A stretch of 60,962 bases of DNA from Reclinomonas americana ATCC 50394 (taxonomy: Eukaryota): NCBI GenBank assembly GCA_048213135.1, contig PS015452.1, forward strand, positions 110,753 through 171,714, written 5' to 3'. Below are positions 861-60,868 of the stretch, piece by piece. A program made the translations under genes and the position numbers. Within the stretch, counting starts at the first letter, position 1, and each line of letters starts with the position of its first letter. The notes beneath the pieces are model-generated. The model did no database searches, had not been told where the DNA came from, and saw only the letters and a program-made list of their open reading frames with translations.

Positions 861-2600
861 GGTGCTCCCGTCAGCGACCATTAGTGCGCGTGATAGGCAG
901 ACGAAAATAGAAAACCACACCAACCTGCTTCTGCAGGTTGGTGTATCGGCTCTTTTGTTGCTCCAGGGTGGAGTTCAAGTCAACAATCTGCATCACACAA
1001 ATCAGTCGACACGGACAATGAACGTGAGCGTGCGTGCGAGCGACGTGCCTGTGCCTTGAACTCCTTGGCCTGATTCAGCGCCTCCAGTTCCTTGCGCTGC
1101 AGGCTGGCCACACGATTCGCCAGCATCTCGTACTCCTGCGGCGAGAAATGGCGTAATGAGCACAGGCTCCGCCTGCAAGAAATGACCACAGCAGCCGCAC
1201 ACACCGCATCCTGTCTCGCATGCCGCGATGCTATGGAATCGAGCTCCTCTTGCAGTGCTCGCCGTTGCGATAGCAGGTCTGAGGCGTGCGACCACAAGTC
1301 AATGCGATTGTTCCTTGCCCGGTTACACCTTCCAACACACATACCCTGAATCTGCACATCACGCTGTGCCACTAGTTGTGTTGTCTCCTCCACGCCCTGG
1401 TCCGCAGAGTCTCTGTAGGCCTTGTAGTCTCGCAGCAAACTGCGGATATCTTTGAACACACACGCACACTCTCTCTCTCCGTATCACACACACAGCGACG
1501 CACCTCTCCTTGTCGGCAAGTCGGTCGCGCGTCTCCATAAGCTCTTGTTGCGTGTGCTGTAATCTGAGATGCACCTCCGCCGCCTCCCCACGCGCCATCT
1601 CCACTTGCGCATTGAGCTCTTGGATTGCCTCCTCCAGCTGCCTGCGGTCTTTCCGCAAAAGGTTGCACTCGCGCTCCATGGTCTCTGTTGCTCGCTGGCT
1701 GTTCTCGGTTCTCAGCTCCAGCTGCTGGCCTGCAGCATGCAAAAACAAGGTCTGAGCCAGTGCAAAACCACACGCACACTCTGTCGGCGCCCCAAACGCA
1801 ACATTCCAGCTCTCGATCACGCAGCGATTCCTTCAGCGTGGCGATTTCACTATCGCCAGCCGCCATGCGCTGCCGGTACAGTTCCGTCTCCTCTGTCAAC
1901 ACATCGATGCGGTCCTGCAGATCGTAGCTGCTCACGCACCAGTCAGCCACGCGCTTCTAAATCACGACTCGAATACAATAAGAACGAAACATGGCACCAG
2001 CATCGGCTGTCGGCGTGCGCACCGAGCGCTGCAGCGCGTCGAGCTCCACTCCTCGCGCACTCGCCTGTCGATCTTGCAACGATCGTTGCAGCTTGTCGCG
2101 CAGCTGCTGGTTCTCCTCCACCAGCACATGCAGCTGTCGATCGATCTCCGAGAACTGGTTCTGCGCGAACACGTGTTGGCGCCATGCCTCACACTCCCCC
2201 TCGACAACACTGCACGGGTGTACCGTAGCAAACGCGATCTGGCCCTCCAGCTCCGTGACGTACGCCTCGTAGGCCGCAAGAAGCGGATTCACAATCTCGG
2301 AATCGGTCGTCCACGGTGGCGCAGGCTGATCGCTCAGCGGTGCATCCAGGGAGACTATCGCACGCTCTATGTCAACGACAGCCTGCTCAATCGCGATGTG
2401 CGTCTCTCTCTTTCTCTCACTACGCCTCACCTGACGCACGAGAGGGCACATGCTTCTGCATCTGTGGATGAGCGCGAAGAGCCGCGTCCAGATTGAGTGT
2501 CACTCGTCGACCACCTCCTGCACCCGTGCGCTATGAGTGCCACACACACACAGAGAGAGAATAGAGACACTACACAAGTCGAACTCGCCTCCTGTCGCAT
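120..2600 (-). CDS. Multi-exon coiled-coil protein, CEP89/CCDC123-like; 3' end runs off the left edge of the window
   Basis: ATG at 2600 (MRQEASST). Spliced exons give continuous heptad-rich sequence (VNPLLAAYEAYVTELEGQI...NQFSEIDRQLHVLVEENQQLRDKL...). The PLLxAYE...LVxENxxL motif resembles CEP89 as I recall it. The last visible exon ends at a GTGCGT donor near 120. Confidence 0.7.
811..857. repeat. (CA)n microsatellite inside an intron
   Basis: Direct inspection. Confidence 0.98.
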
Positions 2601-2747
2601 CGCCAGTCTGTTCACGAGAGACAACTTGTGAGTCACCGTCCGTGCGTCACATACACACACATACACACGCGTAGAAACGCAACAACGAGTGGTCGCACAG
2701 TGCTATCGAATCGCGTGGGAGCCCCACCACTGCCATCAGCAGTCGAC

Positions 2748-5700
2748 ATGAGCGCGCCTGCTCTGAGGCAAGAAAATTGGGACGAGTATGTAACGGTCAG
2801 CGACGTCGATCGCTCCCCACCAAGTACGACGAGGGGAAAGGACGCACTAGGTGTCAATGCACTTGCTATAGTAACGTGCAGCAGAGGGCACTTTGTGGAC
2901 TTTCACAGCAACTGAAAAGCAAAGCCTCTTGAATTCGAACGTACGCGTCGACGTCAAGCTTCAGTGCATGGTGGCTCAGCGACGCGCACTGCTCGCCTTC
3001 CCATCCCTCCGCTTTGGTCCACCTGCTGCACACGGTCACCACGGAGAAGAGAAAGTCGATCAGGAGAAGGACGCGCGACGCTCGCATAGCATCAACATAA
3101 CACGAAGATGAGGTCTTTCCCTCTCCTATTATATCCCCTCCGCTTCACCTCCATCGACCACATTATCGCTCACTCTTACCTCCTCTCCGACAACCGCAGC
3201 GCACAACCACCGGAGTTCGTCGAGGTGATTGTGCCACTCGAGGCCAAACGCCGATCACAGCCTCACGTTCACTCGCCCTCGCCCTCGTCTACCTCGCTCT
3301 CACTGCGACAAGGCGACATGTGTCGCGTGCTTGAGCTTGACGCACGCCGAGCCAGTGTCTCTGTGCAACTGTGGGCTCGTCATCATCAACGCGAGGACGA
3401 GGAGGATGATGACGACGAGGAAGAAGATGACAGGGAAGGCGTGTATCGCTTGCCAGCAGTGGCGGTGCGCGTGGTCGGTGGACCTGCTGGTGTCAAGGTG
3501 AACCTCGTCTTGTGTCATGACGAGTCGTCGTCGACTTCTGTTTGACATGTGGATCGATCGTCAACACGCACACAGAACCTGACACAGCATCCGTTCTGGC
3601 GTGAGCTGGCGACGCGACCGGAGCACCTGCAGACGTGGATGTCACCGGTGTTGGTGAGCAGTGCAATAGCGGGCGGAAGTGGGCGAGCGGATGATGCGGC
3701 GTCGGAGTCGACAGTGGAGTCGGGGCAACTGGTGGCGGTGGTGATGCAGCCGCGACGGCCATCGCTGGTCGCCACCGACGATGACACGTTGCAGGTGTCG
3801 CCGAACAGCAGTGGCAGCGCGCAGGTTCAGCAGCAGCAGACCGGCGGCAGTCTCTCGAACAACAGCGACGAGACCACGGCGACAACGGTGACGACGCCGA
3901 CGCCGACGGTCGCGCACTCGACAGCGATGGAACGCAGCACGGTGCCTGTGGCGACGACTAACGCTGTTGCAGCAGCCTCTGTGTTTGACGCACAACGCGG
4001 TGCGTACGCCAGGCAATCGCCGCCGTCCAGCCCGGGCGCGAACAAGACGAGGGTGGCACAGCTGGAGAGACTCGGTTCGTGCAACCTGTGCAGCGCGAGT
4101 GCGCGCCGCGGGTCACTCACGTGCGATCGCATGCAGTGGGACAGCTGAATATGATGCTCACCAAGTTGCTGGAGGCGCACCCGGGTCTCCACGAACGACT
4201 GCAGGCTGTGGGTTCGCCACTGACACTCGTGCCTCGCTCATCGCCGCTGGCTCCGCTCACACAGCCGCGTTCACAGAACAAAGCATCAAGAGCGGGCGCT
4301 TACCGGCCGCCGCCGGACAGCAGCCGGTCACCGCCGTGCACATTCCACTGATTACGGCCTACGAAGCGCACATTAAGCGTCTGGAGAACACCGTGCAGCT
4401 CACACAGGTGATGTCTCGTGTGTCACTTGACGAAATGTGCGCATCAACTGATTGATGTGTGTGGCAGGCGAGGTTAGCTGACGCCCAGAAAGACCTGTAC
4501 TCGCTGGTGGAGGAGGGCAACGATTTGCGCGAGACACTTACGCTAGAGTCGGAGCTGCGGCGTGCACTCGAACGCCAGCTGCGCACTTCGGGTGCGGAGA
4601 GCGATCAAGCTGACTTGCTGTTGCGTCGAGACTTGCCGGAGTGGTCGTGATGCTGTCACTCACGCGTGGACAGGCTCGAGCTGCACTCGCGGAACGCCAC
4701 ATTGACCGAGGAAGTGGAGCTGCTGAGATTAAAGGATCGTGAGTGGCAGAAGCGAGAGGCGCACCTCAGGGGCGAGCTGGAAGCTGCCGGGAGGAAAGGT
4801 ACACTTCTTTTTTCGAAAATACTCAGCACTTTGCACACGCAGGCTGACCCTGTTTGTCTTTGAAGACAAGGAGAACACGGTGCGGTGGGCGGAAGCAAGG
4901 CGTGACTTCATGGCCGTGGACAAGGACTTGGGGGAGGCGGCGGAGAAGATTGAGCAGATGAAGTCGTTGTGCCAGCGCAAGGACGCCGACTTGACGGAGC
5001 GTGATCGGCAAATCGAGCTGGCTCACCAGGGTGCGCAAGAGGCTCGGCAGCGCCAGACTGTTGCCGAAACGCTGGTGAAGGACAAGGAAGCGTTGCGTGT
5101 GTTCGACACGGGAATGTGGTGCTTGCTCCGTCGTTGACGACATGGTGCACAGCATGCTGAAGGAGTTGAGGTCGCAACTGGAGCAGATGCGAGCACTGGT
5201 GGACCGTCGAGAGGAGCAGCTTGACGAGCGCGAAGGCAAGATACAAAGTTGCAACGATGACGACCTTGGCGTGCGCTGTTTTGTTTCTTGCTCACACACA
5301 CGTCACAGATCTTGTTGCACAACAGCTGTACCTCGAGCAAATCGCCTTGCAGCACAAGGAGACGATCGCCGCTCGCGTTGAGGTTGCGTACCTTCCTCGT
5401 GCTACGTACACGATATGCATTAGTTGACTGTGCCGCCGGCAGGAGGTGCAACGCTTGCAGCAGGAGAACGAGTCGAAGCAGGAAATCGAGCGAGATCTAA
5501 CTCTGGAACTGAGTGGCGCTCAGCGACGTGTTCGTTTTCGATAGACGCCACACTGTTCTTCCCACATCTACGTCGCTCACATGCGGTTATCAAACAGTGT
5601 GAAGACCTGGAGACGACCTTGCGTGCCGAGCAAGAGAGACTGCGTGACGCGCTAAAGGATGTTGCGTACTAGCGACGTGTGCTTGCGTGTTGGAGGTTAG

Positions 5701-7637
5701 CTGGAGACACTGACTCGTCCACAACGCAGCTGACGGCCACGCGGGAGGAACTGTCACAACTGAGGAGCGAGTACGCTCTGCTGGAAGTCAGTGTCGGTGC
5801 AGAGTTGCGGAGGTCATGTCTCCAGTGTTGTCTCTTGTCGCATGCCTGCTGAATTGTGTCTGTGTGTGTGCCTGCTTGGACAGTGCACGGCGTCGTCTGG
5901 TGCAGCAGCTGAAAGACTGCGAAGACATTATTCAACGACAACAGCACGCTCACCGCCAGCTGGAGCTTCAAAATGTGCTGCTCTCTGACGAGAATCGGTG
6001 AGCCCACCGATGCAAGCTTGGCTTGTCATCTAAACACATGATCTTACACACACGCGCAGAGCACTGCAACAACGCTGGGAACTGCTCATGTCAATGCCAG
6101 ACGGTCGTCGGACGCAGGCTTCTCGCATCGAGCAAGAACAGAAGCAGCAGCAGCTGCAGCAGATGCAGCAACCGCAGCTGCAGTCGTCGTCCGATGTGGT
6201 CACTCGAGAACTCGAGCGGTACGTTCTTTCGTTGGAGCAATCTCGCTGCTGCACGTCGGGCACTCACATGCTGGAGGGAAAACAGAGAGCTGCGAGTCGT
6301 GCGCGAGAGGCTGAATGAGTTGGAGACACGGCACATGGAGGCGCAAGCCAGGGATCGCTCACAGCACGCCACCATACAGTCACTGCGTGAGAATATGGAA
6401 ACGCTGAAAGTAAGCAGCAGCATGTGTTCACATGGTGCAGTGCGTAGCGCGCGCGTCTGTCTGAAGCTGCCAATACGCAGGCGGAAAAGGTGCATCTGGA
6501 GCAACGCGTGCGCGACCTGCAGCAAGAGTACGCGTCGTCGAGTGTGCGCAGTCCCGCCGAGCGGTCATTCTCGACGGAGATGAACCGTGGACAGTTGGCT
6601 CTGGTGTGGACGCAGCTGCCATGTGTACCGGGAACGACTTGAGAGACACTCACTACCGCATGTTATCTTTGCAGTTCGAAAGCAAGGCACGTGACGCCGC
6701 ACAGCGAGCAGAGCGCATCAAAACGCTGGAGGCCGTGCTGGAGCGCACACGCGAAGAGAAAGCGCTTCTGGAACACCGATTGTTGCGTGAACACTATGGG
6801 ATGGGATGGCTGCATGCTCACCACCCACCTTCTCAACTGCAGAAGCGTGGCCCGCGAATCGGTCAAGGACGAGCTGGCTGTCGACATTGCGGAGGCGGAG
6901 GCCAAGGCGGAGGTGGAGCGTGTGACGGCGGAGAACGCACGCGCCGAGCTGCAACGATCGCAGGAGGAGGTGCAGAGATTACGCGCCGAGGTAGGAACGC
7001 GAGAGCAGCAAATGGAGGGACTGCAGGCGGCCTTGTTGCGATCGTTGCAGTCGTCGCAACTGGCGACCATACAGCAGGCACGACTGATGGCAAACAATGA
7101 GCACTTGATGGGAGAACGCCGGGAGCTCCATATCCTTTCTGTTGCCATCGCTTGTGCAGCTCCAGTCATCGCGTTGCCACTGCGTTTGTCCTTGACTCTT
7201 CGCGTGCACTCGACAGAATCGAGCGATTGGAACTCGAAGTACGTCGCGCTCACACGGCGAGTGTACGACACGCCGCATCGCCAGCGCTGTCGACGCCCAG
7301 CGTGTTTGGTGCGTGTCCGCCGTTCCAGTGCTTTTTTTCTGTCATGCGCATCATTCTCACCACCCACACCACAGAGGGCATGTTGTATGGCGAAACACAC
7401 GGTACTGGCGTCCCCGGCATGCTGCCGCCGACCACGCCCCAGGTGCTCTCATCCAGCGGGCGCGCCGTTCTCACGACCGCGTCTCCACTGCGATCTCACA
7501 GCCCCGGCACGGCCGTTCGTCGGAAAAAGAGGCCATCGTCGGCCACCGCAGCGACGGCCGAGACCCGACCAATGTCGGCTTCCGCACCTGCTTCGTCGTC
7601 GAGCCGAGCGCGACTACGAGCCATGCATGCACAATGA
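2748..7637 (+). CDS. Long multi-exon coiled-coil protein with a CEP89-like central region and an N-terminal extension
   Basis: ATG at 2748 (MSAPALRQENW). About 20 short introns restore one frame through IPLITAYEAHIKRLE...DLYSLVEEGNDLRETL and a long coiled coil to TGA at 7637. The 5' exon structure is less certain. Confidence 0.7.
7130..7209 (+). other. U12-type (minor spliceosome) AT-AC intron
   Basis: 5' ATATCCTTT at 7130, branch site TCCTTGAC at 7189-7196, AC end at 7208-7209. Removal gives GAG CTC C|TC GAC AGA ATC GAG (ELLDRIE), restoring the frame. Confidence 0.92.
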
Positions 7638-7708: not shown

Positions 7709-9546
7709 CTATGAGTGCACCCACTCAAAGAACTTGGTGGCCAACTCGAAGCCGACAAACATCAGTCCCGCGTACGGAACTAGCTTGGCGAGGTTGGCCG
7801 TCGTGCCGCGGTACAGGCCACGAATGCCCTCTGTCCGCGCCACCTGGTATGTCACGGGGTGAGAGGAGTGGTAGGATAGAGTGGCGACACAAATGGGACG
7901 CACCTTGAGGAAGCAGTCCGTGGCATTCTTGTAGTACTCGGGGTTCGGAGAACCGTCGGCCAAAAACTTTTGGTCAATGCCCTGCGCCTGCAACTTCTTG
8001 CGGATCAGGTCCATGGGGTAGGTGCCGGTCTGCGAAAAGCTGTGGCGCTCTCCCGAATGAGCGACACGCAGAAAACACAGGCAAAGAAGGGTGGGAAAAA
8101 AACGCAACGCTGCGGCAACACAACCATTCGCAAACTGCTGTAGTGGCGACAGCTGATCGCGCGGAATGCCCCATGCACCACCCAACATCTGTGCCATCTG
8201 CGTGAGTTTCCATGCACACCAACCCAACTACCCCGATAGTGCGTCACACACCTCGTAGGCCATGAATGTCATGCCGGCAAAGGGGAAAATGCCGAACACC
8301 GTGGTCACAATGCCGCGGTACAGACCACGCACGCCCTCTTTTCTGTAGATCTGCTTGGCCGTTGGCCACGGAGCCAGTTTCTGACTCATGTGCGACACGG
8401 TCAAGCGCGTCTGCAGCGGCGGGATGAGTCAACGGGAGAAAAAGGAGGAGGGAATTGAACACGCAAGCGCACACACCTTGATCACATCGAGTGGGTACGT
8501 GAAGAACGAGGCAGTGGAGCCAGCAATGCCGCCGGCGAGCAATGCACGCAGCGGCGACAATTCACCTGTTTCTTGACTCCTCAACATGTCCTTCACCTTC
8601 ACAAATGTGGCAAACTGAATGCCTGTGCATGCAGATGAAAACGACAGACAATGAGAGGGGGCTCAGGGAAAAAACACAACGCACCATTGAATGGGAACAG
8701 CCTGACGCACGCCATGCCTGCACCACGACAAACAGAACAGTGCGTGAGCGAGCGAGTGAGCACGCACATTATGCACAAGCATCACCATTGCCCTTCCAGA
8801 ACGCCTTCAGCCCCTCATTCTTGTACACATTCTGTGGCGAGAGAATGAGCACGCCAGAGGCGCACACGACTAACAAGAACCACAAAGAAGGACGCAACAC
8901 TAAAGGTCTTCAGAAACCCCTGCTTGGAGTCCTTGGTGCCGACTTGCGCCAAAATCTTGACCACGTCCAACGGCTGAACACGCCACACATGAAGGGTCAA
9001 CATGCGAAAATAGCGATCGATTTCTCCGATGCACGGGGAGGCACAGGGAGAGACAGGCAGTGAGAGGGAGAGTAAGGGAAGGGGTTTGGCAGAGAGGGAA
9101 AGAGAGAAAGTAAGAGAGAGAGAGAGAGACCGGCAGTGAGTGCATTTGGCGAGAGAAACCGAGTGACTGGTGCATTGTCGATCGCATTTGCATCGATCTC
9201 TACTCTCCAAGCTCTCCCATTCACTCACTCACTCACTGCACCCACTACACCCCACGCAACCCACACCAAAACCACACCAAAATCGCACCAAAACCCCACA
9301 CAAAAAACAAAAAAACTCACCGACGTCAATGTGCGCGATAACACACCCGCAAAGCCGCCGCTGATAAAGTTCTCACCAAACGGCAGCTTACTGCAACACA
9401 AACAAACAGACACAAACAAGTCAGAGAGAGAGAGAGACAAACAAGCGACATGTCTGTGTGCGCAACACGCGCTTGCTCTCTTGCACACACACACGGGCAC
9501 AGAGTGAGTGAAAGTGTGTGTCAACGCACCTCTCAAAACGACCCAT
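7709..9546 (-). CDS. SLC25A43: Mitochondrial carrier family protein, SLC25A43-like
   Basis: Spliced product MGRFESKLPFGENFISGGFAGVLSRTLTS-PLDVVKILAQVGT...EGLKAFWKGNGMACVRLFPF...YPLDVIKTRL...EGVRGLYRG...YPMDLIRKKLQ...EGIRGLYRG has three Px(D/E)xx(K/R) carrier repeats. Family is secure; subfamily is by recalled similarity. Confidence 0.85.
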
Positions 9547-10081: not shown

Positions 10082-12115
10082 ATGCGAGGCATGGGCGCAT
10101 CTTCGTCGCCCACTGCGGATAGTGGATACGCGCCACCGCGCTCGCCGGGTAGTGGTGTGCTCTCGCCGGGCAAGGCGGCTGGAGCGGCGGCCGCAGCAGC
10201 GGCGGCTGGTGTCACACCGCAGGGCGACCGGCTGTCGCTGATGCATCACCGCGATGCGGATGAGAGCGATGATAGCGATGGAGAGACGGCCTCCAAGCCG
10301 GTGCAGTCGTCTTCGTCTACGCCGCCGGCACCGTCGCGGCCACCGGCGAGGGCGGCAGCGAGGGCGGCGGCAGCGGCGGCGTCGTCGTTGTCGGGGGCGG
10401 CGTCGGTGGAGTCGGGCGAGTCGTCCATGCTGGATCAGCGCATTGAGAAGAGGCCGCAGTCGCCCGACGCGCCACCGGTGGTGAGTTGATACACAACAAC
10501 GAGGGTATAACTGTGTGTGCGTTCGCACACATCCACTGACTCGTCTTCCTTGCAGCCGCGATTGGCGTTTGGCCATTGGCCACCACCAGAGGGTCCGGTG
10601 ACGCGCGGTCGGCCGCAGTTTGAGGCGAGGCTGTTGGCGGTGCGCGAGGCCATGAGCACATCCACCACGCGTTCGCTCGGCAACGTGCAGAACGCTGTCA
10701 ACGCACTGTCGGCATTCATCCGCACCGAGCCGCGCAGCACCGAACTCACCAACCAAGGTGCGCCACGCTCTCCTCTTACTTCGCCTCTCCTCTCGCACTT
10801 TCTCATCGGTGTGCTGTCAGGCGTCGTTTTCCTGCGACGACTGCTCGGCATTTTGGACAAGGTGTACGCCGACTGCTACCGACGCGAGCCACTGGCGATG
10901 CCCGACAGTGACTTGCAGTTTGTGTATGCGCGCGCGCTGGAGTTGACTGTGGATCTGTTTATGCAAAAGACGTGTGCGCACGCCGAGACCGTTCACCGCG
11001 GCCTGCCCGATGTGCCCGAGTTGGAGGCGTTTGCGTGCGACAAGCTGTTTGAGGACTACACGCGAAACGTGGCGCTGCGCGGACAGTTGCTGGCGCTCTA
11101 CTCGTCCGTGATGAATCTGAGTGGTGTGTCCAGCTTGCGGAGATAATTTCCCCCATGACTCGCCTTTCTCACTCACTCACTGCTGCGTGCTTCCTCACGC
11201 TGTAGAGGCACAATCACTCAAACTGAATGAGGATCGCTTCGTCACACTCGTCATGGATTCGCTGGACAATTTCGTGGAGGACTCGTCGTGCTGCGGGTGG
11301 GCGTGCTACATTATCGCGATGCAAGCGCTCTTTTTGCGACCCGAAGTGGAGGCCACATACGCCGTCAAGGGCATTCCGCGAAGGCTTGCCGAGATCATTG
11401 ATCGTGCGCTGCTCACCAACACACCATTCCCGGCGGTGCAATCGATTAGCGCCATTCTGTACCTGGTCAAGAAGAGCGGTGTGTGAGAGGGAGAAACAGA
11501 TTCATCTGCTGTGCTTTCTCGTGTGACTGAAAGAATGCGACTGTCTCCTGGTGACCCGCAGAACGCCTGAAGAGGCTGGCGCTGGAGACGGGCATTGTGG
11601 AGAAGCTGGATTCGTGCATGGCGCTCTTCACCAACAACCAGCAGCTGGAGCAAAAGGCCGATCAGCTGCGGCGATTCCTCAGTGCGGGTGCCGGCGGCGC
11701 TTCTCGCTCGCTCGCCACGTGCGTACAATTCTCCTTGTGTGATCGACTTGAGCGTTTTTTGCACTCACTCCTCTCGTGCTGGTAACAGTGCGCCGGCATC
11801 ACCGTCGCCGCCAGTCAGCAATGGTGGAACGCCGACGTCCTCGTCGGGATTGCAAGCGGGCGGCTCACTATCACGACGCACCAACTCGGATGTGTCGTCG
11901 GACACGGAGAGTGATTCGCGTGGCGTGAGCAGCTCGGGTGTGAAGCTGCGAGTCGGTGGCGGTGGGCGGTCGACCAAGAGTTGAGTGGTGGTGGGGGGTG
12001 GGGGAAAGAAGCAGGGTTGGCATTCCTCTGTCTCACATGACTGTATGCAGGCAACGATGGGTACGCACCACCGACGCTGCCGTCGTCGGCCGTGAGGAGT
12101 GGTGGAGCGCGCTAA
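10082..12115 (+). CDS. Hypothetical protein: helical core flanked by Ser/Pro/Ala low-complexity tails; start uncertain
   Basis: ORF pieces 10076-10489, 10517-11146, 11121-11486 and 11597-11984 join through GT-AG introns; final exon ends at TAA 12115. Confidence 0.65.
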
Positions 12116-26274: not shown

Positions 26275-26473
26275 TCTTGGTGTAGAAAGGAGGGGAAGAG
26301 ATCAAGTAGAGCTTGTTATAATAATGTTATGTGCAGCATTTGTTTATGTTGGAGGGAAGCGTTCTTCTTTCGGTGCGTAGAGTTTGTGAGAAGAGAAGAG
26401 GCATGCATGATGGCGATCTCGATCGCACTCAGCAGATATCAGATCCCGCTCTCAGCATTCCACCCCACGCAAT

Positions 26474-46289: not shown

Positions 46290-46337
46290 TCACTCCCCGG
46301 TAGTGGGCGTTTGAGAGAGTGATTACTGCAATGAAAG

Positions 46338-48213: not shown

Positions 48214-49800
48214 ATGGAGAGCAGTGCCGAAGCCGACGAAGACAGTCAGGCACTATCATTACACGATGCTCTCACCGCCATTGGCATCACCAAGACTCAT
48301 TACCACGTGACGGCGCTGTGTGTCGCCGGCTATGTGGCGGTGGTTGCCGAGCTGTTTGTGTTCTCGTTTGCACAACGCGACGCGGCACGTGAGTTCTTCC
48401 ACGGCGTCGCAGATGACACTGCCATGGCGTGGGTGGCATGGGCCTCCAATGTGACCGCATTCATCGGAGCGCTGGCGTGGGGTGCGTGGAGTGATCGGGG
48501 ATTGGGTCGCCGATGGACATTTGTCATCTCGGCGCTGGTGTGTGGCGTGTTTGGGGTGGCCAGTGGATTCGCGCCCTCCTACGCAGCCTTTGTGGCCCTG
48601 CGAGCACTCACTGGACTCGGCATTGGTGGTCTCATTGTGGTGGACTTTGTGTTCCTCTTGGAGTTTCTGCCGGCGACGCATCGCGGTCGTTTCATGGTGT
48701 GCGTCACGCTTGGCGCCGCCTGCGGACTCTTCCTCACTGTGACGTTCGCGTACTACACGTTGCCGGCGTGGCGCTGGTTTGTGTGCCTGGCGGCGACCCC
48801 ATCACTCATCATGTCGGTGCTGCGTCTGTGCATTCGCGAGGAGACGCCACACTTTCTGCTGCTCCACGGACGCCACTCCGAGGCCGAGGATGTGTGCAGC
48901 CGAATGGCCGGACGCAGTTGCGTGGTTGTTGCTGCTCAGTTGCGGGCGACGACTGACAAGTGGGTGCGCGACTGCAGAGATCCGCCTGAGGCCCATGGAT
49001 GCGCGACCACCGGTGTCGTATGTGGCCGGGCTGCGGCTACTGTTCGGCGGTAAGCAGTTGCGTATCACACTCGGTCTCGGCGCGGCGTGGATGGCACAGA
49101 CGGCCGGCTTCTGGGGCATCTCCCTCTTCATGCCCGTTTACTTGGCGCAGCGCGGCTTCTCCGTGTACATCAGCTACTGGATCTTTGCCAGCATGCAAGC
49201 AGTTGCGTCGTGCTTGAAGGATGATGAGGGGGACAGGGAAAGAGGGAAATCTGACTCGCTGCGTAGCTGGCGCTGTTGATCTGCATCTTCCTGGTCGACT
49301 CGTGGGGCCGGCTGCGCTTGCTGCGCACGCTGACAGCCATGGGTGCCGTGGGTATGATACTCTTTGCGTTTTTCCAGCAGCCACCGTGGCTCGGCACGGT
49401 GCTCTGCGTGGCCACATACATGTGGCTGCCGGCCATTTACGGTGTGATGTGGACCTTCACGCCGGAACTGTTCCCCACCTCGGTGCGCGTCCTCGGCATG
49501 TCATGGATCCACCTGTGCACCACCGCCCCCAACCTCTTCACGCCGTTCGCCGCGTCGTACCTGGTCGGTGACAGTCGCGCCTACTTGTATCCGTTGGTGT
49601 GGTCGCTGTGCTTTTTCCTCGAGTGCTTCATCATGTTTGTGGTGTTGCGACGGGAGACCAACCAGAGCGACCTGTCGCCGGAGAGTAATAGTGGGGATGG
49701 CGGACAAGACGCTGGCGTCAGTGCGTTGTTGGAGATGACGGATTTGAGACCAGCAGACGACAACGACGGTCGTGATACGGTAAATGAAAAAGTGGACTAA
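48214..49800 (+). CDS. MFS transporter, SV2/SVOP-like (paralog 2)
   Basis: Same motifs as paralog 1 with equivalent intron positions (48917 and 49202). Confidence 0.9.
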
Positions 49801-50049: not shown

Positions 50050-53000
50050 ATGCCCGACGACGACAATTGCTTCCTGAAATGCCTCGGTGGCACCATCTTG
50101 GTGGCGATCGCCGTTCCCATCGTGACCACAGGCCTCGTTGCCAGTGGATGCCTCGGCTTGGTGTGCGTGGATTGTTCCTGCTTATGGTGTAAGCTTCGTT
50201 GCTGTCCAGAGCATGTGGTGCGTGGATGATGATGACGTATATGCAATGCATTCTGCAATATTAAAACTCGCTGCGCTGACAGGGATGGACTCCGGATCGG
50301 TGCTGGTGTTTCGGAGCGGGGAACTGCCCGCGCTGCTGCTTGATCCACAATGCTGGCACTGGAGCGCTTTCGCTCGAGGATTTCGCTTGCCAGCTCAAGT
50401 GGTGCGGACCGGCCACGCGTGTGAGGCGGCTGACGCTCTCGCCGTACTGGCCAATGGGAGGGTCGCGATCGAGCAGTGCTGGAGGCACGCTCCGCCACCC
50501 ATGGTGCCCCAAGTTCTGCTGCTCATTCTACAAGTGCAAGTGGTGAGTTCTATTTCTCCCAATAATATCTCCTGTATGTCACACCTTTGTTGATGACGTG
50601 CATTTGCGTGCATATAACGGACGCAGCTGCTGCCATCGGCGCCACAGGGAGGGAACCATTGACTTTGGAACTGACCCTGGCGTGGTGCTCGGCCCGCTCT
50701 TTCCCAACCTTCAAGAGGTCGACTTCACCGGAGTTGAAGGCAAGGGCGCGATGAAGGGGCAGCAAATCATCAGTCTGCTGCGTGTGCTGCCTGATCTGCA
50801 GACGGTCATTATCACCAGGGAGGAGTTCCTTGTGACAGCGTACTCGGGCTGCTTCTTCAAGGTCCCGTGCATTGTGCTACCTGAAGGTGAGTGCCATGTC
50901 CAGGAGGGACATGATACGTGCTCGCCATTCCCGCATCTCTCACATGACACCGGCCAGCGATACTGGACGAGGAGCTGGGTCAAACAGTGGCAATGTGCTG
51001 CCCGCTGTTGGAAGAGTTGCACGTGTTGCGAGTCAGAGTGGCAGCGCCTGCCGCATCGCCCACTGGTCGAACTCCCGCTGTTGCAGCACCACGACAGCTC
51101 ACGGCGGGTTCAAGGCCGTGGCCTGGAGCTGTGTGGGTGGCTGCTGGTTGCGATTTCCTGCGGCGCGTAACCGGTACGTGAGCTAGCAACGCCAACGGAG
51201 GCTGTCAGTGTGACGGCCGGCTCCTTTCTGACAGTATTCTTGTGTCAACGCACAGACGACCACATCTTTGTCGAGACGTGCCTGTCGACTCTGCCGGCCG
51301 AGTATTCGCGAACAGTGTTCACCCTGCAGGATGCCATGCGCGCCATTCGGGAGCGCCTGCCCGACGCAGAAGCTCAGGAGATCGAAGACGGACAAGACTT
51401 GGCGGCCGAGCGCTGGGCGCGCTTGACTGGAGTTGTGTTGCCCTCGAGCCTCCAGTGTTGACGTGCGTGTTGTTTCTCATGTCCTTTTAGTTCCCTCTGG
51501 AGCACGCCATGCGTATGAGGAGAGGCGAGCCTGAGGTGGAAGAGCCAGAGGTAATGTTCGACGCCTCGGCACGTAGTGTGTGCCCTATACTCATTTCCTC
51601 TCTACCTAGCCTCTTGTTCCTGTCGCCGCCCCGGTGTATGCATTGCCTCCTGGCCAGTATATCGACTATGGACACCCGGCGCACCTGCCACTCCCACAAC
51701 AAGCTCCCATGGGCGCGTGTCCACCAGTCGGTGGTCCCAACGGCATGGCGCCAGCAATCCCTGTCGCGTTGGACCCGAAGAACAACGCAGCAGCCGCGAG
51801 AGCGCAACCGGTACCGCCACCTGCAGCACCTCAAGTGCCTCAACCGCCTCCTCAACAAGCTCAGCCGCCACCTCAAGCAGCAGCTCCACGCGCTGCAGAA
51901 ATCCGACCTGCACCGGCGGCAGTGGTGCCAGCACCGATCGTGGTGAGTGCGCTTGTGATGATTGTTCATCCTGCTCGCTGCAGGGTGTGTAATGCGTACT
52001 GACGATCAATCAGCCGGATCCGAATGCCTACGACGGCGATATGGCCGCGATGGTTGTCAACCCGCTCAACGTCCGTCTGCACGTGGACGCGGCTGTTGCG
52101 TACCAGCATCCATCAGTCTCTTTGCCTGTTTAGAAACCTGCGGCTGATGAAGTCATTGTGAAGGTACCGCCGCCGGTCGCCGTGCAACCTGAACCGCCTG
52201 CGCCTGCACCAGTCACGGAGGTCGTCGTGAATCGGGCGAGGGGAACGGTGTGGCGCGTGTGCAACTTTTTTGCACCACGATCTCATGCTGACTGAATATG
52301 GTCGGTGCAGATGCGTTGCGCGCGTCTCAAGCTCGCCATTCTCGGTGCTGGTGGCGTCGGCAAGACCTCCATTGTCGAACGCCTCACAAAGAACACATTC
52401 ACACCGGCACTGCACTCGGAAACCGAAGGCATGCTTGTCTCGCGGTACACGCTGGATGGCTGCACGCTTGCCGGGGACATTGCAACCGTTGCGTAACGCT
52501 GTTGGTTGTAGTCTCCGCCACCGAGATGTTCACAGTGCAGAACAGAGTGTGCGCCTGTGCCTGTTTGACATGGGAGGCCAGCATGACTACGGCGTGATTC
52601 ATCGTCGATTCCTGTCGGAGCGCACGGTCTACTTGGTGGTATGTCGTGGTGACAGGCAGCTACCAACTACGGAGTGAGCTCACACCTTCCCGTGCACAGG
52701 CTGCCGATTTTCGTGCGCGTGACGTACAGGCGCTGACTCCCTGGCTCGATCTCCTCCGAATGCGATCACCGAGGAGCCACGTTCTGGTGGTGCTTACAAA
52801 GGCGAGTGTGACTCGCCTGTGACTTCCATCATCGACAACACTGCTGACCCTTCATTTCTCTCTGCTAACCAGGACGATGAAGGCCGTGGCATGACTGTCA
52901 GCCTGCAGAACGAGTTGCGCGCTCTGGCCGCCCGATATGGCGACACGCTGCAGATCCACACCGATCTTGCGTGTGTCGTGTCGGCCTCCAATGGCACCGG

Positions 53001-56000
53001 GTTCGACGGACTCAAGCATGCTCTGCGCCGCGTGATTGCCGAGGTTGGTGTCACTGCATGACAGTAATCGCCAATGGTTGTTACTCATGCTCCACTCTCC
53101 AGCTCCCATTCCTGACCGACGAGTTTCCCCGCACGTGGATCAGTCTTGCGTATGCGCTGGAGGGTCGAGCGAATGCTGGCGACAAGTTCATCACGACGAC
53201 GCAAATCAATCAGATGGCAACACAAGTTGGTTTCCAGCCGGCGGATGTGAGAGACGGATACGTTTGCCGTGTTGTACTTGGTGCACTTTGGCAGGTATGC
53301 GCCGCTGCTTGCGCTACTGACGGAAGAGGAGATGTCACTGATTTCTCATGTGTGTGCAGTGGGGCATCTGCGCCACGTTCCAGCCACACAACCTCATGTC
53401 CACGATCGTGTTGCTGGACATGGCGTTTTTGACGGCGCTTCTCGGCCGCATTCTGCAGTGCCCGGTGGCGCTGCTGGAAACTCACGGTTCGCTCGTATCG
53501 CTGGAGCTTACAGAAGCACTGTGGATTCCGTCGCAGCACGGCAATCAAGTGGTCTGTTGTTGTACAAAGCAATACCGCATGCTTTCTATGTGTTGTCATC
53601 TCTCACCACCAACTGTTTGTGCAGCCCATGGTCGACTTGCTGCCAGCTGGCACAGACTGCTCGCCATTCTTCGACCTGATTGTCGCCATGGAAGTCGGCA
53701 CGTTGATGGCGCCTGGCATGCTTCTGGTGCCACATTTGCTTGCACCACTGCCCGCATTCGACGATGATCGTATTCTGCTGGAGGAGGCCGACGAAGCTCC
53801 GCACTGGGCGATGCGTGCATCTCAGCCTGCCGCTGCAGCTGCCGTCGGTGGCAGCGGTATCCCAAATGCAGCGGCCAGCAACGTGTTCACCATGCTCGGC
53901 TCGATGCAGCAGCTGACTGGCCAGCTGATGTGTGTGCTGAACCGCGTCGCCCAAGTGCGACCAATCTGCGCAACAGCGGTGAAGTGCGATTTCGCGGAAC
54001 TTCGCGCCACGGCAGTGGTGCACGTGGCAAACAATGGCTCCCAGGTTATCGTCCGTGTGGCTCCTGCCGCGGACGAGCGAGCTCAACCGGTCATGCCTAT
54101 CCGTCAACTGTCTTCAGTAGTCGGCAATATTCTGCTGCGCCTGCTGTCGGAGGAACTGCCGGGATTCGCGGAGGAGCGCTGTGTCATGTGTCCGCAGTGT
54201 GAAGCTCGTGGTCATGTCGACCGTCCAAAGCTGTTCTGGGAGGTTCGTTCCTGATATCTTCTCAGTAGTGATGTTGGTTGTAACGACGACAGCTGCATGC
54301 AGGAAGAGTTGCGACAGATGGTCAAGTACGTTGATCGCGTGGACTGCGATGTCTGTGGTGGCTCTGTGCAGCTAGTCGATCTGTTGTTGGAGGCACGCGA
54401 TACGACACTGGTACCTCTGGCGGAGCGTATTATGGCCTCGTCTGAGTCGCCAGCTGCCGCAGCTTCGTCGGTTGGAAGTGCAAGTGGTTCTGCAAGCTCG
54501 GATGGTGAGCTTCTCCTTGATGGATGTCGACTCAAAATGAGATGGTGACTGAGGAAGACTGTCCTTGCACACAGCTGCATTCGATGCCATTCAGTCCAGC
54601 CAGATCCGCATGCAGCAGCGCATGCGCGCCATGCAAGAAGCGAATGTTAAGGATCAAGATCACTTGCAGCACATTCATGTTGCGTCGATGAGATACTTGT
54701 TGGCGCAGCTCTTCGGTGGTATTCACCGCTTGGTTCTCTTGCAGGTCGACGTGGGGGAAGTCCGTCACATGCAAGACGCTTTTATGCGTGCCATTGAGCG
54801 CAACCTGCATTTGCTGTGGCCCTCTGCAGTGTTGCTGCTCCCGGACAAGCGCAGTGGCAGTGAAGAGGTGTGTGCTGGTGGTGATTTGTGAGTGATTTCC
54901 CTCTGTCGTTACTCACCACACCACTACAGACATGGATGCAGCGCCTCTACGCATCACTGACTGGCGCGCCGTCGACCTTCAAGATCCATGTGCTGTGCGA
55001 GTTCACACTGGCGCTGGACGAATCGCTTGTTGAACGATGCGAAGGTCACAGTACCAGATCGGCGTCTGCTTCTGCGGCCGATGGCAAGGTGGGGATTTGT
55101 ATGATGCCTGCGGCACTTCTGGTGACTGCTGACACTTTTCGCGAAAAAAGATTGTTGTTCCACTGTGGCATCTCAGTCCCGATCACCAAGGCTTCGATGC
55201 GAAAGAGCTGAAGAAGTGGGCCAAGAAGGTGCTGCCGTGGTTGCGCCGTGGACTGCAGGCGCTAGGGTCCGTTGTCTTGTGCACCTCTTCGTGCTTGCCG
55301 CATGATGATACTTATCTTTTTGCGGTCGACAGAACTCTGGCTCGTGGTGGACAGCTTGCTGGCCTCGGCTCACAGGAAGTATTCGGGTTCCCGGCTGAAG
55401 CAGAGCCAGCGACCATGCAGCACGTGTACGAGTTCATCGATGCCGCTGTGCCAGCACTCGAAAAGGCAGCAGGAACGCGTGTGTCCATGGAAGAAGGACA
55501 AGCGGCAGCCACAGCTTCGACATCCAATGCACTGTCGGTAAGCCACCACTGCACAGACATTGCGATGATGGTGTGCTTGGTGTGAATGCTCAGCTGCTCT
55601 ACTCTATCTCTACAGTTCGAGGTGCCATTGAGTGTGGAGCACAGCATGACGCTGCTTTCGCAAGGCGTTCCGCAACGGCTTGAGGAGTTGCGGCACGCGA
55701 TCGTAATGTTGCGCTGATTCGTCGAGACTCATTGTCTGCTTGTCCAGAGCCGACGCCCAAGCGGCCATGGAGTTCCTGAAACTGCCTGCCCGGGTGGTGA
55801 CCCAGGTTGGCGGATTGCACGCGACGCTGGTGACTCGCGACGCTCCGTGCGGTCGTGCCGGCACGTTCCTCTGGTGCTGCCAGGGCCACCGCGACCTCAT
55901 CCGTCAGTGGAACGACTCACAAGTTGTGGAGGAGGAAGTGTTTGTGCGGCAGGCTCTGCAAGTGTGTCAGTGCGGCACCCGTATCCTCAGTCACATGTGA
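50050..56000 (+). CDS. ROCO-family protein: hydrophobic and Cys-rich N-terminus, LRR-like repeats, Pro-rich linker, Roc GTPase and COR; 3' end 56000-56156 uncertain
   Basis: P-loop GAGGVGKTS, G3 FDMGGQHDY, HRRFLSERTVYLVV, PWLDLL, VVLTKGE, VSASNGTGFDGLK, FPRTWISL, zinc-ribbon CPQC/CDVC and C-terminal FKIHVLCE...HQGF. Confidence 0.82.
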
Positions 56001-57426: not shown

Positions 57427-58233
57427 CTCGAGCAATTGCATTGGCCCGGCACATACAGGTCATTGTCCGCCACATCCACGGTGGTGCGCTGTACACGACA
57501 ATGAACGTCCGCCGGCTGCTTGCAGTACGTGACCTTGTAGAGAGATGGCTCTGCGATAAAGGACATTCTCGATCCAGGCAAATTCAGTGTCGTCACTGTA
57601 TTCGATTACAGGTGGTGTTTCTGAGTGGACACGCTACAATCTGCAAGCCTCTTACTGCGGTTGTGTCGCATGCCTGCTGGTGACAGTGGGTGCTGTCGAG
57701 GATTGGTGCAGTTTACCGAAGCGTTCGAGCAAGACGAATATTGCATGAAATTCGAACTTACTCGTCAGCATCGTTGCGTTCCTTAGTACGCATAAAAGTG
57801 ACACACTGCTGCATCGCCTGTGCCGCACACACTGCTGCCGCTGCTGTGCCCACGCGCGCACGCTGGAGAGGACAATCATCAATTCGAACATGGCGGCACT
57901 CAACGGACGTCAATATGATGAACTGCGCAGAAACAGTGTTTGCGCGCGGCATTTTCCAACGGTCGTTTCAATCAACATTGTCGGCATCTCTGCACGCAAG
58001 GTATCTCTCGCCCCCGTCAATCACACACACATAGGCACACACACATACACACATGCACACACGCAGAGAGTGTTGGCGCGTGTGATTGTGTTTTGTGCAC
58101 GCGCGCGCACGCAGTGTAGTGATGACCTCATGCTCACTGTCTCTCTCTCTCTCCACACACACACACAGAGAGGGTCGCTGACGTGCGTGCGCGGAGAGGA
58201 GGAGCGTGAGTGTGTGAGTGTGTGCCTCACTTC

Positions 58234-60868
58234 ATGAGTGATCCACCACGACCATCGCACGGCGACAATGGTGGTGGCACTCAGCCGCCACAGAGAGCAA
58301 TCGCCTCTGTGCGTGCACCGCTCCACCGCATGTCGTCACTAATGACTACCACCGCGGCACCAGAACAACAACAACAACAGCAGCAGCAGCAACAACAACA
58401 TCGAGGCAGTGGTGTGATGCCGCTTTTGCGCTCCATCACCAACTCCTCACTGACGATTTTGCGCGAGGCCACTGCCGACGCGGTCGTTCGCGATCGATCG
58501 CCCTCACCAGCAGCGACGCCCGGGCAGAGAAGGCGACCGGCGACTGCGCACCCGCCCAGTTCCACACCGCCTGTTCGCGGCTCGGGGTCGCTGGGAAGTG
58601 GGCCGATTGAGACAATCACACAGCCGGTGACTGTCGGTGACATTGGGTATGAGCCGAGGCCGTTCCTGGAGAGTGCACGAGGCGACAGGGGTGGAAAGCG
58701 GCCGTCTCTGACTGTGGATGCGGCGGCGCCTCGTGCTGCAGCGTCGCCACTGTCAACGTCGTCGTCATTATCATCATCATCATCACCACCACCATTACCA
58801 ACGCAGCAGCAGCAACCACAGCAGCAGCACAGAAGACTCGGTTCAATAGCAGACTCGGATGGCGGGGGCAACGGTCGCCGCGATTCGCTGCAACCACACG
58901 GCTCCCTGATGGCTTCTGTGGGCAACGATGACGCGACGCTGGCGGCGCGTCGTCGATCCAGTCTGCGAGTGCCACCACTAATTACGTCGCTGGCGCTCTC
59001 TCCTGGCAGCGCACTGTCACCGCAGTCGGCGGTCGATGGCGTGCCAACGTCGCCAGTGAGTGCGGTGGCGCACGCGGCCATGGCCAGCAGCCCTGCCGCG
59101 CAGGCGAGTTACGCCGCTCTGTTGCGGCAGAGTCAGCTGCACCAGAGGCGGCCGAGTGCCGAGTTTGATGAGTTGCTTGTGCCGGCGCCACCACTTGCGC
59201 CTCCCTTGCATGTGGCGTCTGGTGGCGGCAGTGACCGCTCTCGGCGCGTAAGCTTGGCCAGTCGCAGCACGGCTGCGTCGCACACCGCGGTCGACGACGA
59301 TGAGGGCGACACTACCGCGCCGCAGCATGTATCTGGATCGCAGTCACGGAGACGCGGGTCGGCGTCAGCAGTGGCAGCAGCGGCGACGGCATCGGCCGAT
59401 TTTCTGTGGCAGACGTTACGTCTCACACACACACGTATATCCGGTTTTGGCAGCAGCGAGACACATGCGCACGCAGAGGAGGAGTATTCTTGTTCATATT
59501 CAGCCTCATTACTCGCAGTTTGCTGTGTGTCTCCTCTGCAATCCCACCCTGTCGCTTGTGCTTGTATACGCAGCGAGAGGGAAAACACTTTTCTATCGTG
59601 TGCATTGCTGACCAATAAGCTGGTTTTGTCGTCTGGGCTGTCTGGTTTTGACTCATCTGATTGTGCGTTTCGTGTGCATCGACGCAGTCCCGGAGTACCG
59701 TCCTTGCCACGGAGCGACGGTGGTGCGCATGCAGACGCTGCAGCCATCGACAATCTGCTGGTATTGGACCCCAACGGCAACACTTTGGCGACCGACCTCG
59801 TCGCTCAGCAGTGGCGCATGCGGCTGATGTCGCAGAACGCCGCTCACGAGGACACAAAGCAACAGCTGGCCGAGGCGCTGCGCAATGTTGCGATTTGATG
59901 CTCTCCATATTTGGCGTGTCTCATCTCTCCCACAACGCACACTCACACACACACACGCAATCCGCATCAACACAGGTGCAAATTCTTGGTGAGCTGAGTG
60001 CCCGCTTGTACGAGAAGTTTGAGGTGGAGCAGACCAGGCGAAGGCAAGCACAGCGTGAACTGCGCCGTCTGCGAGAGGTGTGTCATGGCCCGCTGCGAAT
60101 CTCACACCCTGTGTGACGACGACTCTGACACTTGTGTGCACGGCAGGAACTGACGATGCGACGCGAGCTGGAAAAGAGGCACAACGAAGAGCGTGCCTCA
60201 TTAACAGATCGTGTGGCCGAGCTCGAGGGCACGCTTAAAGCTATTTTGGCGGCAGCTCGTGATTTCACGAGCGAGCAAAAGGGGACTGCTCTCGATTTGT
60301 CATCGTTAAGTGTTCATTGTGCGTGCCTGTCAACCGCGGACGCCGCTGGTGCTGACATCCTCTCTCCCTCTCTCCCCCACTAACCAGTGATGCCACTGGT
60401 GCGGATGCTACCTCTGCGTCTGGCGGCCACGGTATTGGCGTTGGAGACATGCACTACAATACCGTAATCGACAACCTGCTGAGAAGGAGTAGTCTCGTGG
60501 ATGCCAGTGCACTACTACCCACTGGCGGTGACTCTGCTCGTTCGCGCGTGGCAGTGGCCGCAGCTGCAGCCGCTGCAGCGCTCCTCTCTCCGTCGACTGC
60601 GTCGAAGAGATTAAGTTCTCACGACAGTGGTGACGAGAGTGCACTCGACGAATCGTCCTTCAGCAGTGGTGGAGCCACCGACGACGCGATTGGCGAGGCA
60701 CCATCACGGCGTCGAAATGGTGGCGACTCGGACGAGTTGGCCGAGGACGCAGACTATCTTGACGATAGGCCTCGAGCGGGCATAACGATGCAGGTGACAG
60801 TGGAGCACATGGCGAGTCCATCCACCGCCGACCAGGTGGCGCCTGGTCGTGTTATAAGAGGCGACTAG
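58234..60868 (+). CDS. Hypothetical protein, low complexity with a central coiled coil
   Basis: ORF 58210-59898 joined by GT-AG introns to VQILGELSARLYEKFE..., ELTMRRELEKRHNEE... and final exon ending at TAG 60868. Confidence 0.65.

Follow-up and report, generated by a model that had tools for sequence, protein, structure and literature searches.

We analyzed a stretch of 60,962 bases from Reclinomonas americana ATCC 50394 (GenBank assembly GCA_048213135.1, contig PS015452.1, positions 110,753 to 171,714 of the forward strand), referred to here as the window, in which a large group of predicted introns begins with GTTGCG. The window is eukaryotic, very intron-dense, and 58.8% G+C. Pfam was applied to the 150 longest open frames and later to 149 predicted exons; per exon it was informative for eIF3d and a mitochondrial carrier and gave no match for most genes. 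The genes recognized with Pfam are the carrier (minus strand, 7.5 to 9.4 kb), a tandem GST-like pair (minus strand, 12.2 to 14.6 kb), a WD40 gene with a single exon (24.7 to 26.3 kb), eIF3d (minus strand, 29.0 to 31.8 kb), a tandem pair of MFS transporters (46.3 to 49.8 kb), and genes for a DUSP-domain protein, a HECT-like protein, and a Roc GTPase. A secreted-looking protein is encoded at 27306-28924 (+), and its exon 1 matches solved gamma-glutamyl hydrolases (GGH; E = 4e-6). Exons 2 and 3 of this gene had no relevant PDB match, the later exons being too divergent, and the carrier exon gave repeat-level matches only against PDB. In protein searches, the WD40 product matched just generic sequences at about 30% identity, none of them itself, an eIF3d exon had no match in a word-indexed search, a protein atlas yielded nothing beyond the label "mitochondrial carrier", and a large protein collection contained no proteins from a close relative.

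To place introns, we wrote a generalized hidden Markov gene finder for the window, with three-periodic third-order coding models, explicit intron lengths, and both strands. It was trained on this window only, starting from the Pfam-positive frames. In the donor-blind run, each GT received an equal donor score, and what was modeled was coding potential, intron length, the branch motif (CTSAY, learned de novo), and the acceptor. This run predicted 172 introns with a length peak of 60 to 75 nucleotides (nt), 163 of them within 40 to 140 nt. A two-component donor mixture was fed back into the finder for the donor-model run, which predicted 188 introns, 180 of them within 40 to 140 nt. Counts from the donor-model run are partly circular at position -1, and the donor-blind figures are the primary ones.

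GTTGCG at predicted donors and the two donor classes

A sequence-only reading of the window had listed 36 introns starting with GTTGCG. All 36 positions carry the hexamer on the strand assigned to them (minus-strand donor coordinates denote the G of GT), and the last exon base is not G at 34 of them, the two with G being 5383 and 38238. Some 50 to 90 bases downstream of the listed sites lies a CTCAC- or CTGAC-like element followed by CAG or TAG. On both strands together the hexamer occurs 88 times, compared to 70.9 +/- 7.5 in 100 dinucleotide-preserving shuffles, one of which reached 88. With a raw count barely above chance, the nonrandom feature is where the matches lie. GTTGCG began more of the 172 donor-blind introns than any other hexamer (30), ahead of GTGCGT (14), GTGTGT (13), and GTGAGT (7). 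Of the 163 introns within 40 to 140 nt, 30 start with it, where single-position frequencies taken independently give an expectation of 2.0, and it accounts for 88 of the 8433 GT sites overall (binomial p = 5e-28).

The placement could also be seen with no gene model. A CTSAY...YAG arrangement follows within 30 to 115 nt at 36 of the 88 GTTGCG matches, against 1271 of 8151 other GT sites, or 16% (p = 1e-8). By location, 40 of the 88 matches are predicted donors, 17 lie in sense exons (two read-through introns included) and 17 in antisense exons, 6 are intergenic, and 4 each fall within sense and antisense introns. The donor-blind run recovered 25 of the 36 listed donors exactly and took a different donor, mostly a nearby GT, at the other 11; the donor-model run placed 34 exactly and added 6 further GTTGCG introns. 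Absent from the latter run are 13250 and 54679, candidates of 60 and 66 nt that keep the reading frame and contain no stop, a kind of intron that a frame-based finder reads through. The proposed anticorrelation with an exon G was also recovered in the donor-blind run, with -1 G at 2 of 30 GTTGCG donors versus 76 of 133 other donors (p = 3e-7). The GTTGCG donor observation is thus confirmed at the level of the sequence.

An unsupervised two-component position model, fitted from random starts to the donor-blind donors, separated a component A (63%), with -1 G at.73, GT, +3 G at.62, C, A, or T at +4, +5 G at.79, and +6 T at.54, from a component B (37%), with -1 G at.04, GT, +3 T at.70, +4 G at.69, +5 C at.78, +6 G at.72, and +7 T at.54. 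The motif had been described as the common donor moved by one base, and this holds: positions +1 to +7 of B (GTTGCGT) differ from positions -1 to +6 of A (GGTGCGT) at one position. We defined class A by +5 G and class B by +3 T, +5 not G, and +6 G. The 163 donor-blind introns then comprised 82 class A, 37 class B, and 44 other donors, many of the last being probably mis-set; the 180 donor-model introns comprised 113, 50, and 17, with -1 G in 13 of the 17. Class B therefore makes up 23% of predicted introns in the donor-blind run (37/163) and 28% in the donor-model run (50/180), a mainstream class as had been proposed, and the rarity within the genome that goes with human shifted sites does not describe it.

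The base before the cut separates the classes sharply. In the donor-blind run, 63 of the 82 class A donors follow a G, compared with 2 of the 37 in class B (p = 5e-14), and of the donor-model introns lacking -1 G, 48 belong to class B and 18 to class A. Where a class A donor combines +3 T with +5 G (20 cases), -1 is always G, so what matters is the G-to-G spacing and not the T itself. The fixed feature is the spacing from an upstream G to the inner G-T, anchored at either -1 or +1. Class B is also tight: 30 of its 50 donors are exactly GTTGCGT, 44 of 50 have +5 C, and its further heptamers (GTTGAGT, GTTACGT, GTTAAGT, GTTTCGT, and GTTGTGT) consist of GT, a T, and a class A tail. C occupies the position equivalent to +4 in 36 of 95 class A donors that have -1 G (38%), in 12 of 18 class A donors that lack it (67%), and in 44 of 50 class B donors (88%); the donor-blind figures for the same three groups are 23/63, 8/19, and 33/37. 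This C rises the more a site relies on its intron side, which is compensation.

Intron phases 0, 1, and 2 are distributed 52/42/19 in class A and 22/9/19 in class B (p = 0.005). Class B is rare where -1 is the first codon base and common where it is the second. Phase-0 class B introns often follow GAT, AAT, AAC, or AGT, codons which, we infer, could not end in G without a change of residue. Read functionally, donor class would track what the exon can offer at -1.

A few of the other donors have +5 T and +6 G: g|GTGATGC at 8785 (-), g|GTACTGT at 29263 (-), g|GTGATGT at 28180 (+), and t|GTAGTGT at 2573 (-). The junction at 8785 is gap-free against P0197, a 306-residue ortholog of the carrier. 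These donors could be another off-register variant.

The 3' signals of the two classes are the same. The order of branch motifs is CTCAC > CTGAC > CTCAT in each, the branch-to-acceptor distance is 19 nt in class A and 17.5 nt in class B, the median length is 69 and 67.5 nt, and C occupies acceptor position -3 in 96 of 113 and 40 of 50 introns (Mann-Whitney p = 0.49 for branch score and 0.10 for branch distance). Class B occurs in 13 of 16 predicted genes. Its introns have the GT...AG ends and the branch motif close upstream of the acceptor that mark U2-type GT-AG introns, a comparison that is only partly a test, the GT-AG ends having been imposed by the finder. U12-type introns of the minor spliceosome resemble class B in adding a second, tightly conserved donor motif to the main one. 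We rejected that assignment, however, as class B does not differ from class A in branch motif, branch distance, length, or acceptor, and its donor is presumably unlike that of the minor class.

The unusually uniform 5' heptamer might also suggest a mobile intron that spread not long ago, with class B as an introner family whose members start with GTTGCGT. All-against-all blastn of the 180 intron interiors gave 5 matches at E < 1e-3, all simple-repeat-like and none between class B pairs. The lengths and 3' signals of class B equal those of class A, and paralogs that are about 54% identical have retained the class at homologous positions, so we give this explanation next to no weight. Identical 3' signals and the lack of shared interiors together indicate neither a minor-spliceosome class nor a mobile intron family.

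Homology at individual junctions

For eIF3d, a 61-residue exon retrieved 551 relatives at E <= 0.001, and 26 full-length sequences were made into a hidden Markov model (HMM) profile. Against this 26-homolog profile, a 12-exon model, to which we added a last intron that the finder had missed, scored 438.7 bits. Each donor or acceptor was then replaced by every in-frame GT or AG within 45 nt. The donor at 30777 (t|GTTGCGT, 62 nt, 30716..30777, minus strand; listed earlier and found in both runs) was the best of 4 variants by at least 8.6 bits, and the alignment across it is gap-free. The donor at 30158 (a|GTTGAGT, 70 nt, 30089..30158, minus strand; first predicted here, in the donor-model run) was the best of 5 variants by at least 9.6 bits and sits in a variable loop. 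The donor at 29467 (c|GTTGCGT, 77 nt, 29391..29467, minus strand; listed, both runs) outscored its sole alternative by 38.1 bits. The sequence-only reading had cited KIA|YV as a junction fixed by conservation at this last site, and we obtained a gap-free MKIA|YVTR there, with Pfam coordinates running from 460 through the split codon to 462. At 31032 (a|GTTGCGT, 67 nt, 30966..31032, minus strand; listed, donor-model run), the alternatives scored -1.0 and -2.3 bits, and a second GTTGCG lies 13 nt inside the intron. This donor is within a Gly/Arg-rich stretch, so homology gives no choice of donor at the site. eIF3d has a long Gly/Arg-rich (GGDRGG/RGG) insert at 30966-31480 (-), about residues 125 to 235 of the model, which is absent from the 26 aligned homologs.

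In the carrier, P0197 aligns without gaps across both GTTGCGT junctions, at 8898 (t|GTTGCGT, 67 nt, 8832..8898, minus strand; listed, both runs) and at 8108 (c|GTTGCGT, 69 nt, 8040..8108, minus strand; listed, donor-model run). At 8898, the joined product FLKTFS|NVYKNEG corresponds to FLKSFSNIYQKEG in P0197. From this alignment we also recognized two class A introns overlooked by the finder, one starting with GTGAGT near 9320 and the other, in frame, with GTGCGT near 7906. Class B accounts for 4 of the 11 placeable introns in eIF3d and 2 of 8 in the carrier. Scanning relatives' DNA with P0197 gave 19 distant loci, mostly of 30 to 49% GC, with other gene structures or on intronless transcript-like contigs, and these were too distant for a comparison of orthologous introns.

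Two tandem pairs in the window offered a comparison between paralogs. The GST-like genes at 12252-13313 and 13493-14587 (minus strand) are identical at 176 of 319 alignment columns and keep their intron positions. In gene 1, the segment 13191..13250 (c|GTTGCGC, 60 nt, minus strand; listed, in frame and stop-free) corresponds exactly to a 20-residue gap in the alignment with the paralog, and a GTTGCGC donor stands at the same place in gene 2 (c|GTTGCGC, 63 nt, 14444..14506, minus strand; listed, both runs). The exact paralog gap supports 13250 as an intron, though the finder read through it. Stop-free, in-frame candidate introns occur at 13191-13250 (-), 54679-54744 (+), and about 7847-7906 (-), and a paralog or ortholog supports two of the three.

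The MFS genes, at 46331-48055 and 48214-49800 (plus strand), are identical at 279 of 513 alignment columns (about 54%) and share both intron positions. At the first, both copies read gca|GTTGCGT (47167..47237, 71 nt, and 48917..48977, 61 nt; plus strand, both listed and found in both runs). At the second, in the same column and phase, MFS 1 has acg|GTACGGC, a class A donor (47462..47533, +), whereas MFS 2 has gca|GTTGCGT, a class B donor (65 nt, 49202..49266, +; listed, both runs). In the aligned genes, the second intron shows a class switch that travels with the -1 base, G in one copy and A in the other.

In the GGH-like gene, the exon upstream of 27550 (c|GTTGCGG, 65 nt, 27550..27614, plus strand; listed, both runs) can be aligned with solved GGH chains through its final residue, a match that covers exon 1 only. 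Since exons 2 and 3 lack a PDB match, the junctions at 27835 (c|GTTGCGT, 53 nt, 27835..27887, +), where the flanking exons are divergent, and at 28644 (a|GTTGCGT, 58 nt, 28644..28701, +) rest on frame and coding potential; both had been listed and came from the donor-model run only.

Removal of the predicted intron thus restores a continuous conserved protein at 8898, 8108, 30777, and 29467, and a paralog gap gives the same answer at 13250. Class B sites beyond those checked by homology rest on frame and coding potential. We also considered a GC-AG intron starting 3 nt downstream (GTT|GCGT), which would add a codon, and rejected it because the alignments are gap-free.

These junctions bear on whether the pattern could be a product of GT-AG modeling, with the true donors at nearby GT or GC sites or some of the segments not being introns. 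Several points could be taken that way: the junctions come from genomic sequence, the 11 listed sites noted above were assigned a different donor (usually a GT close by) in the donor-blind run, a GC donor 3 nt downstream keeps frame, and the overall hexamer count is only modestly above shuffles. However, the enrichment at donors emerged with no donor model, the link to CTSAY...YAG is model-free, the four gap-free junctions exclude a gained or lost codon where they lie, and the paralog gap equals the 13250 segment exactly. We consider an artifact of this kind very improbable.

Register and reader of the motif

If class B is class A moved by one base, its exon side should tell which register is used. 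We scored exon positions -1 to -3 of class B and obtained a log-likelihood of -148.6 under the class A profile shifted by one, -198.0 under the same profile in the same register, and -159.2 under exon background. Most of the shift signal is at -1, which resembles class A -2 in being A/T rich and G poor. This favors a shifted register over a bulged U.

The bulged arrangement would have U1 pair with -1, +1, and +2, leave the U at +3 (or +2) bulged, and resume pairing at GCGU. It has the attraction that the motif is literally GTGCGT plus one T, and a bulge at +3 (or +2) is a register with experimental support in human cells, according to the section of PMC4856993 on such registers. A bulge, however, keeps the exon -1 base opposite the same U1 base, C9, so that -1 G would be favored as it is in class A (63/82). 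The opposite was observed (2/37). As given above, the exon side scores much lower in the same register than in the shifted one, and the +1 G was paired with C8 in only 4 of 50 minimum-energy duplexes with canonical U1. We regard a bulged U as unlikely.

Our preferred reading is that 5' splice sites in the window would present one motif, G-(G/U)-U-G-C-G-U, in two registers. In class A (G|GUGCGU and looser variants) the exon would end on the motif's first G. In class B the entire motif would lie one base deeper in the intron (N|GUUGCGU), the +1 G replacing the exon G and a U replacing the second G, and in both classes cleavage would fall 5' of the motif's first GU. The most likely reader would be the general U1 small nuclear ribonucleoprotein (snRNP), pairing in a register moved by +1 at class B, with later steps (U6, U5, and Prp8) fixing the cut at GU. 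Class B would serve intron positions where the exon offers no -1 G, and the shifted register would be weak, hence a remaining motif held near the optimum GCGU. We put the probability at about 60% that one U1-read motif is used in two registers and that class B introns are ordinary U2-type GT-AG introns of about 67 nt, sharing their 3' signals (CTSAY branch site and CAG acceptor) with class A.

Several results weigh against this reading. When the canonical U1 5' end, as printed in PMC4856993, was folded against each donor with nearest-neighbor energies, class A paired in the normal register with a median of -6.4 kcal/mol, while class B had a median of -1.4 kcal/mol with no consistent or stable register: the +6 G was paired with C4 in 16 of 50 duplexes and the +1 G with C9 in 9 of 50. 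The consensus N|GUUGCGU pairs at -3.2 kcal/mol versus -3.9 kcal/mol for N|GUGCGU, and the near-invariant +5 C of class B mismatches canonical U1. For three of the four junctions checked by homology, moving both intron ends one base downstream would yield synonymous codons; we discounted such a cut on grounds of chemistry and the shared CAG acceptor. In addition, the finder merges neighboring genes, adds some false introns, and misses in-frame ones; the data are a single 61-kb window; and all junctions are predicted from genomic sequence.

The extra T brings no gain in pairing, so U1 pairing alone, or a simple tolerant U1, fails to explain why class B is preferred to class A where -1 G is missing (48 versus 18). 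Of the sequence-only reading, then, the displacement, the missing -1 G, and the mainstream status stand as sequence statistics, and a simple tolerant U1, one of the options that it had named, leaves the preference for class B unexplained. Given the pairing results, the U1 5' end may be altered, or the motif may be read by a second U1 or by a protein.

In the first of these, one U1 would bind G-N-U-G-C-G-U with its nucleotides 5 and 6 changed to GC, and the cut would be made before the first GU, with the cut site in this lineage routinely set independently of the U1 register. As an illustration, a hypothetical U1 with GC at positions 5 and 6 paired with class B in a +1-shifted duplex with a median of -6.75 kcal/mol, C4 pairing with +6 in 45 of 50 and A7 with +3 in 42 of 50. 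Such a change would explain both the stable shifted duplex and the rise of C at the +4-equivalent position (38%, 67%, and 88%). To our knowledge, the U1 5' end is near-invariant across eukaryotes. In three GC-rich protists, the 11 nucleotides at the U1 5' end match the consensus, as stated in the part of PMC3033335 that deals with them, and this speaks against an altered U1. We hold the altered U1 as a tentative possibility, clearly behind the two-register reading.

Alternatively, class B could have a dedicated reader, either a variant U1-type small nuclear RNA (snRNA) complementary to GUUGCGU in an unshifted register or a protein factor, which would amount to parallel systems on one spliceosome. 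Class B is as tight as if every position were read, canonical U1 pairs poorly with it, and the extra T gains nothing with the general U1. A hypothetical complementary 5' end paired with 50 of 50 class B donors in one register at a median of -10.75 kcal/mol. On the other hand, Rfam, run on the window at gathering thresholds and at E <= 1, returned two tRNAs and two subthreshold matches and no snRNA. The exon side of class B mirrors that of class A moved by one, and the motifs differ at a single position, for which one reader is simpler; the 3' signals are identical in both classes; and the consensus U1 5' end of GC-rich protists (PMC3033335, same part) counts here as well. A dedicated reader is rather improbable, about on a par with an altered U1.

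Class B in the window and among known donor systems

Class B introns are spread over the length of the window. In the following, coordinates are on the plus strand unless marked (-), "listed" refers to the 36 introns of the sequence-only reading, and "added" means first predicted here. Listed introns found in both runs, apart from those treated above, are t|GTTGCGT at 1730..1802 (-, 73 nt), 4620..4673 (54 nt), 5661..5729 (69 nt), 6782..6842 (61 nt), 37773..37837 (65 nt), 37943..38021 (79 nt), and 46067..46133 (67 nt); c|GTTGCGT at 5092..5152 (61 nt), 34193..34251 (59 nt), and 52488..52545 (58 nt, in the Roc-GTPase gene); a|GTTGCGT at 32501..32570 (70 nt) and 41156..41228 (73 nt); and g|GTTGCGT, the second with -1 G, at 38238..38299 (62 nt). 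Variants at +7 in this group are t|GTTGCGC at 33223..33290 (68 nt), a|GTTGCGA at 33732..33792 (61 nt), a|GTTGCGC at 35487..35559 (73 nt), and t|GTTGCGA at 59887..59975 (89 nt).

The donor-model run contributed the listed g|GTTGCGT at 5383..5442 (60 nt), where the donor-blind run took a GT 6 nt upstream, and a|GTTGCGT at 19773..19843 (71 nt), where an earlier donor-blind iteration had the same donor with another acceptor. Listed introns from the donor-model run only are a|GTTGCGG at 5804..5883 (80 nt), c|GTTGCGT at 37424..37486 (63 nt), and a|GTTGCGT at 39286..39371 (86 nt). The stop-free t|GTTGCGT candidate at 54679..54744 (66 nt, in frame, listed) is in neither run and has TTCAC and a CTTGCAG acceptor.

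Introns added by both runs are a|GTTTCGT at 657..730 (-, 74 nt), t|GTTTCGT at 1928..1990 (-, 63 nt), a|GTTGAGT at 11980..12050 (71 nt), t|GTTGCGC at 21033..21104 (72 nt), t|GTTGCGT at 35832..35894 (63 nt) and 52095..52163 (69 nt), a|GTTTTGT at 41602..41674 (73 nt), a|GTTACGT at 43661..43731 (71 nt), a|GTTGCGG at 55687..55747 (61 nt), and c|GTTACGT at 59415..59687 (273 nt, long and less sure). To these belongs c|GTTAAGT at 60305..60387 (83 nt), the heptamer that the sequence-only reading had cited for rare vertebrate donors. Added by the donor-model run only are t|GTTGCGT at 2608..2683 (-, 76 nt), t|GTTGCGA at 7035..7159 (125 nt, the weakest of the set), a|GTTGAGT at 19425..19566 (142 nt), c|GTTTCGT at 37558..37633 (76 nt), and a|GTTGTGT at 38353..38416 (64 nt) and 51432..51490 (59 nt).

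Other features of the window were seen along the way. Microsatellites of (TG)n/(CA)n are common at window positions 1-110 and in introns, often right after the donor (GTGTGTG...), with examples in the introns at 805-924, 30544-30612, 37773-37837, and 59887-59975. The two tRNAs are tRNA-Phe (GAA) genes with identical scores at 26473-26547 and 26832-26906 (+), 359 bases apart, between the WD40 gene and the GGH-like gene. A weak match to the C/D-box small nucleolar RNA (snoRNA) snoU6-53 lies at 29643-29726 (-; 24.6 bits, E = 0.48, below the gathering score), inside a 213-nt eIF3d intron (29565-29777) that is one of the few long introns; unusually long introns of about 200 to 300 nt may host snoRNAs. 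A run of 84 N (an assembly gap, 40668-40751) falls inside a predicted exon of the DUSP-domain gene.

The closest known counterpart is the shifted U1 register of human 5' splice sites (Roca and Krainer 2009, as described in Tan et al. 2016, PMC4856993), which the section on registers there treats as atypical. Shifted and bulged registers are given for atypical human sites, with tens listed (68 sites for the one-base bulge at +2/+3 and 51 for the bulge at +3), and the shifted register is set apart from the +2/+3 bulge in that section as well as in the reference list of PMC9311317. Human shifted sites, as that section presents them, resemble class B in having the consensus one base downstream of the cut, no +5 G, G and U at +6 and +7, and an intron +1 G where the exon -1 G would pair. 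They differ in being atypical, whereas class B makes up 23 to 28% of predicted introns here, and in their tail, which is AAGU there and GCGU here, the latter pairing poorly with canonical U1. Class B also follows a near-absolute rule of no -1 G, and its reading by U1 is putative. The human bulge registers in the same section of PMC4856993 share with class B an extra intron nucleotide between GU and the remaining consensus, but predict a -1 G that class B lacks (2/37).

A second comparison is with the two major donor classes AG//GU and //GURAG, described by Parker et al. 2022 (PMC9803359) and in a review (PMC11732430). As in our data, one class is supported by the exon and the other by the intron, with one side compensating for the other; those two classes, however, share one register with +5 G, while class B is displaced by one base and has +5 C. 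In the literature collection that we searched, which was limited and excluded supplements, we found no paper treating GUUGCG or GTTGCG as a donor; the organism's genome paper may note the motif. Taken together, a shifted register would be of a known kind, and what appears to be new is a mainstream GTTGCGT class with a rule against G at -1.

These introns have a practical side. The two classes blur into an average with G or T at +3, any base at +4, and G or C at +5, and gene finders with a single donor matrix would for that reason mis-set or miss class B introns. If the U1 5' end proved to be altered in R. americana, an RNA element that ranks among the most conserved in eukaryotes would have undergone a change seldom seen. 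Binding of U1 off register leaves the question of how the exact cut is fixed. If about a quarter of all its introns carry one sharp off-register motif, this genome would offer a natural experiment on cut-site choice at genome scale, and the rule against -1 G and the class switches between paralogs would add to the usefulness of the system.

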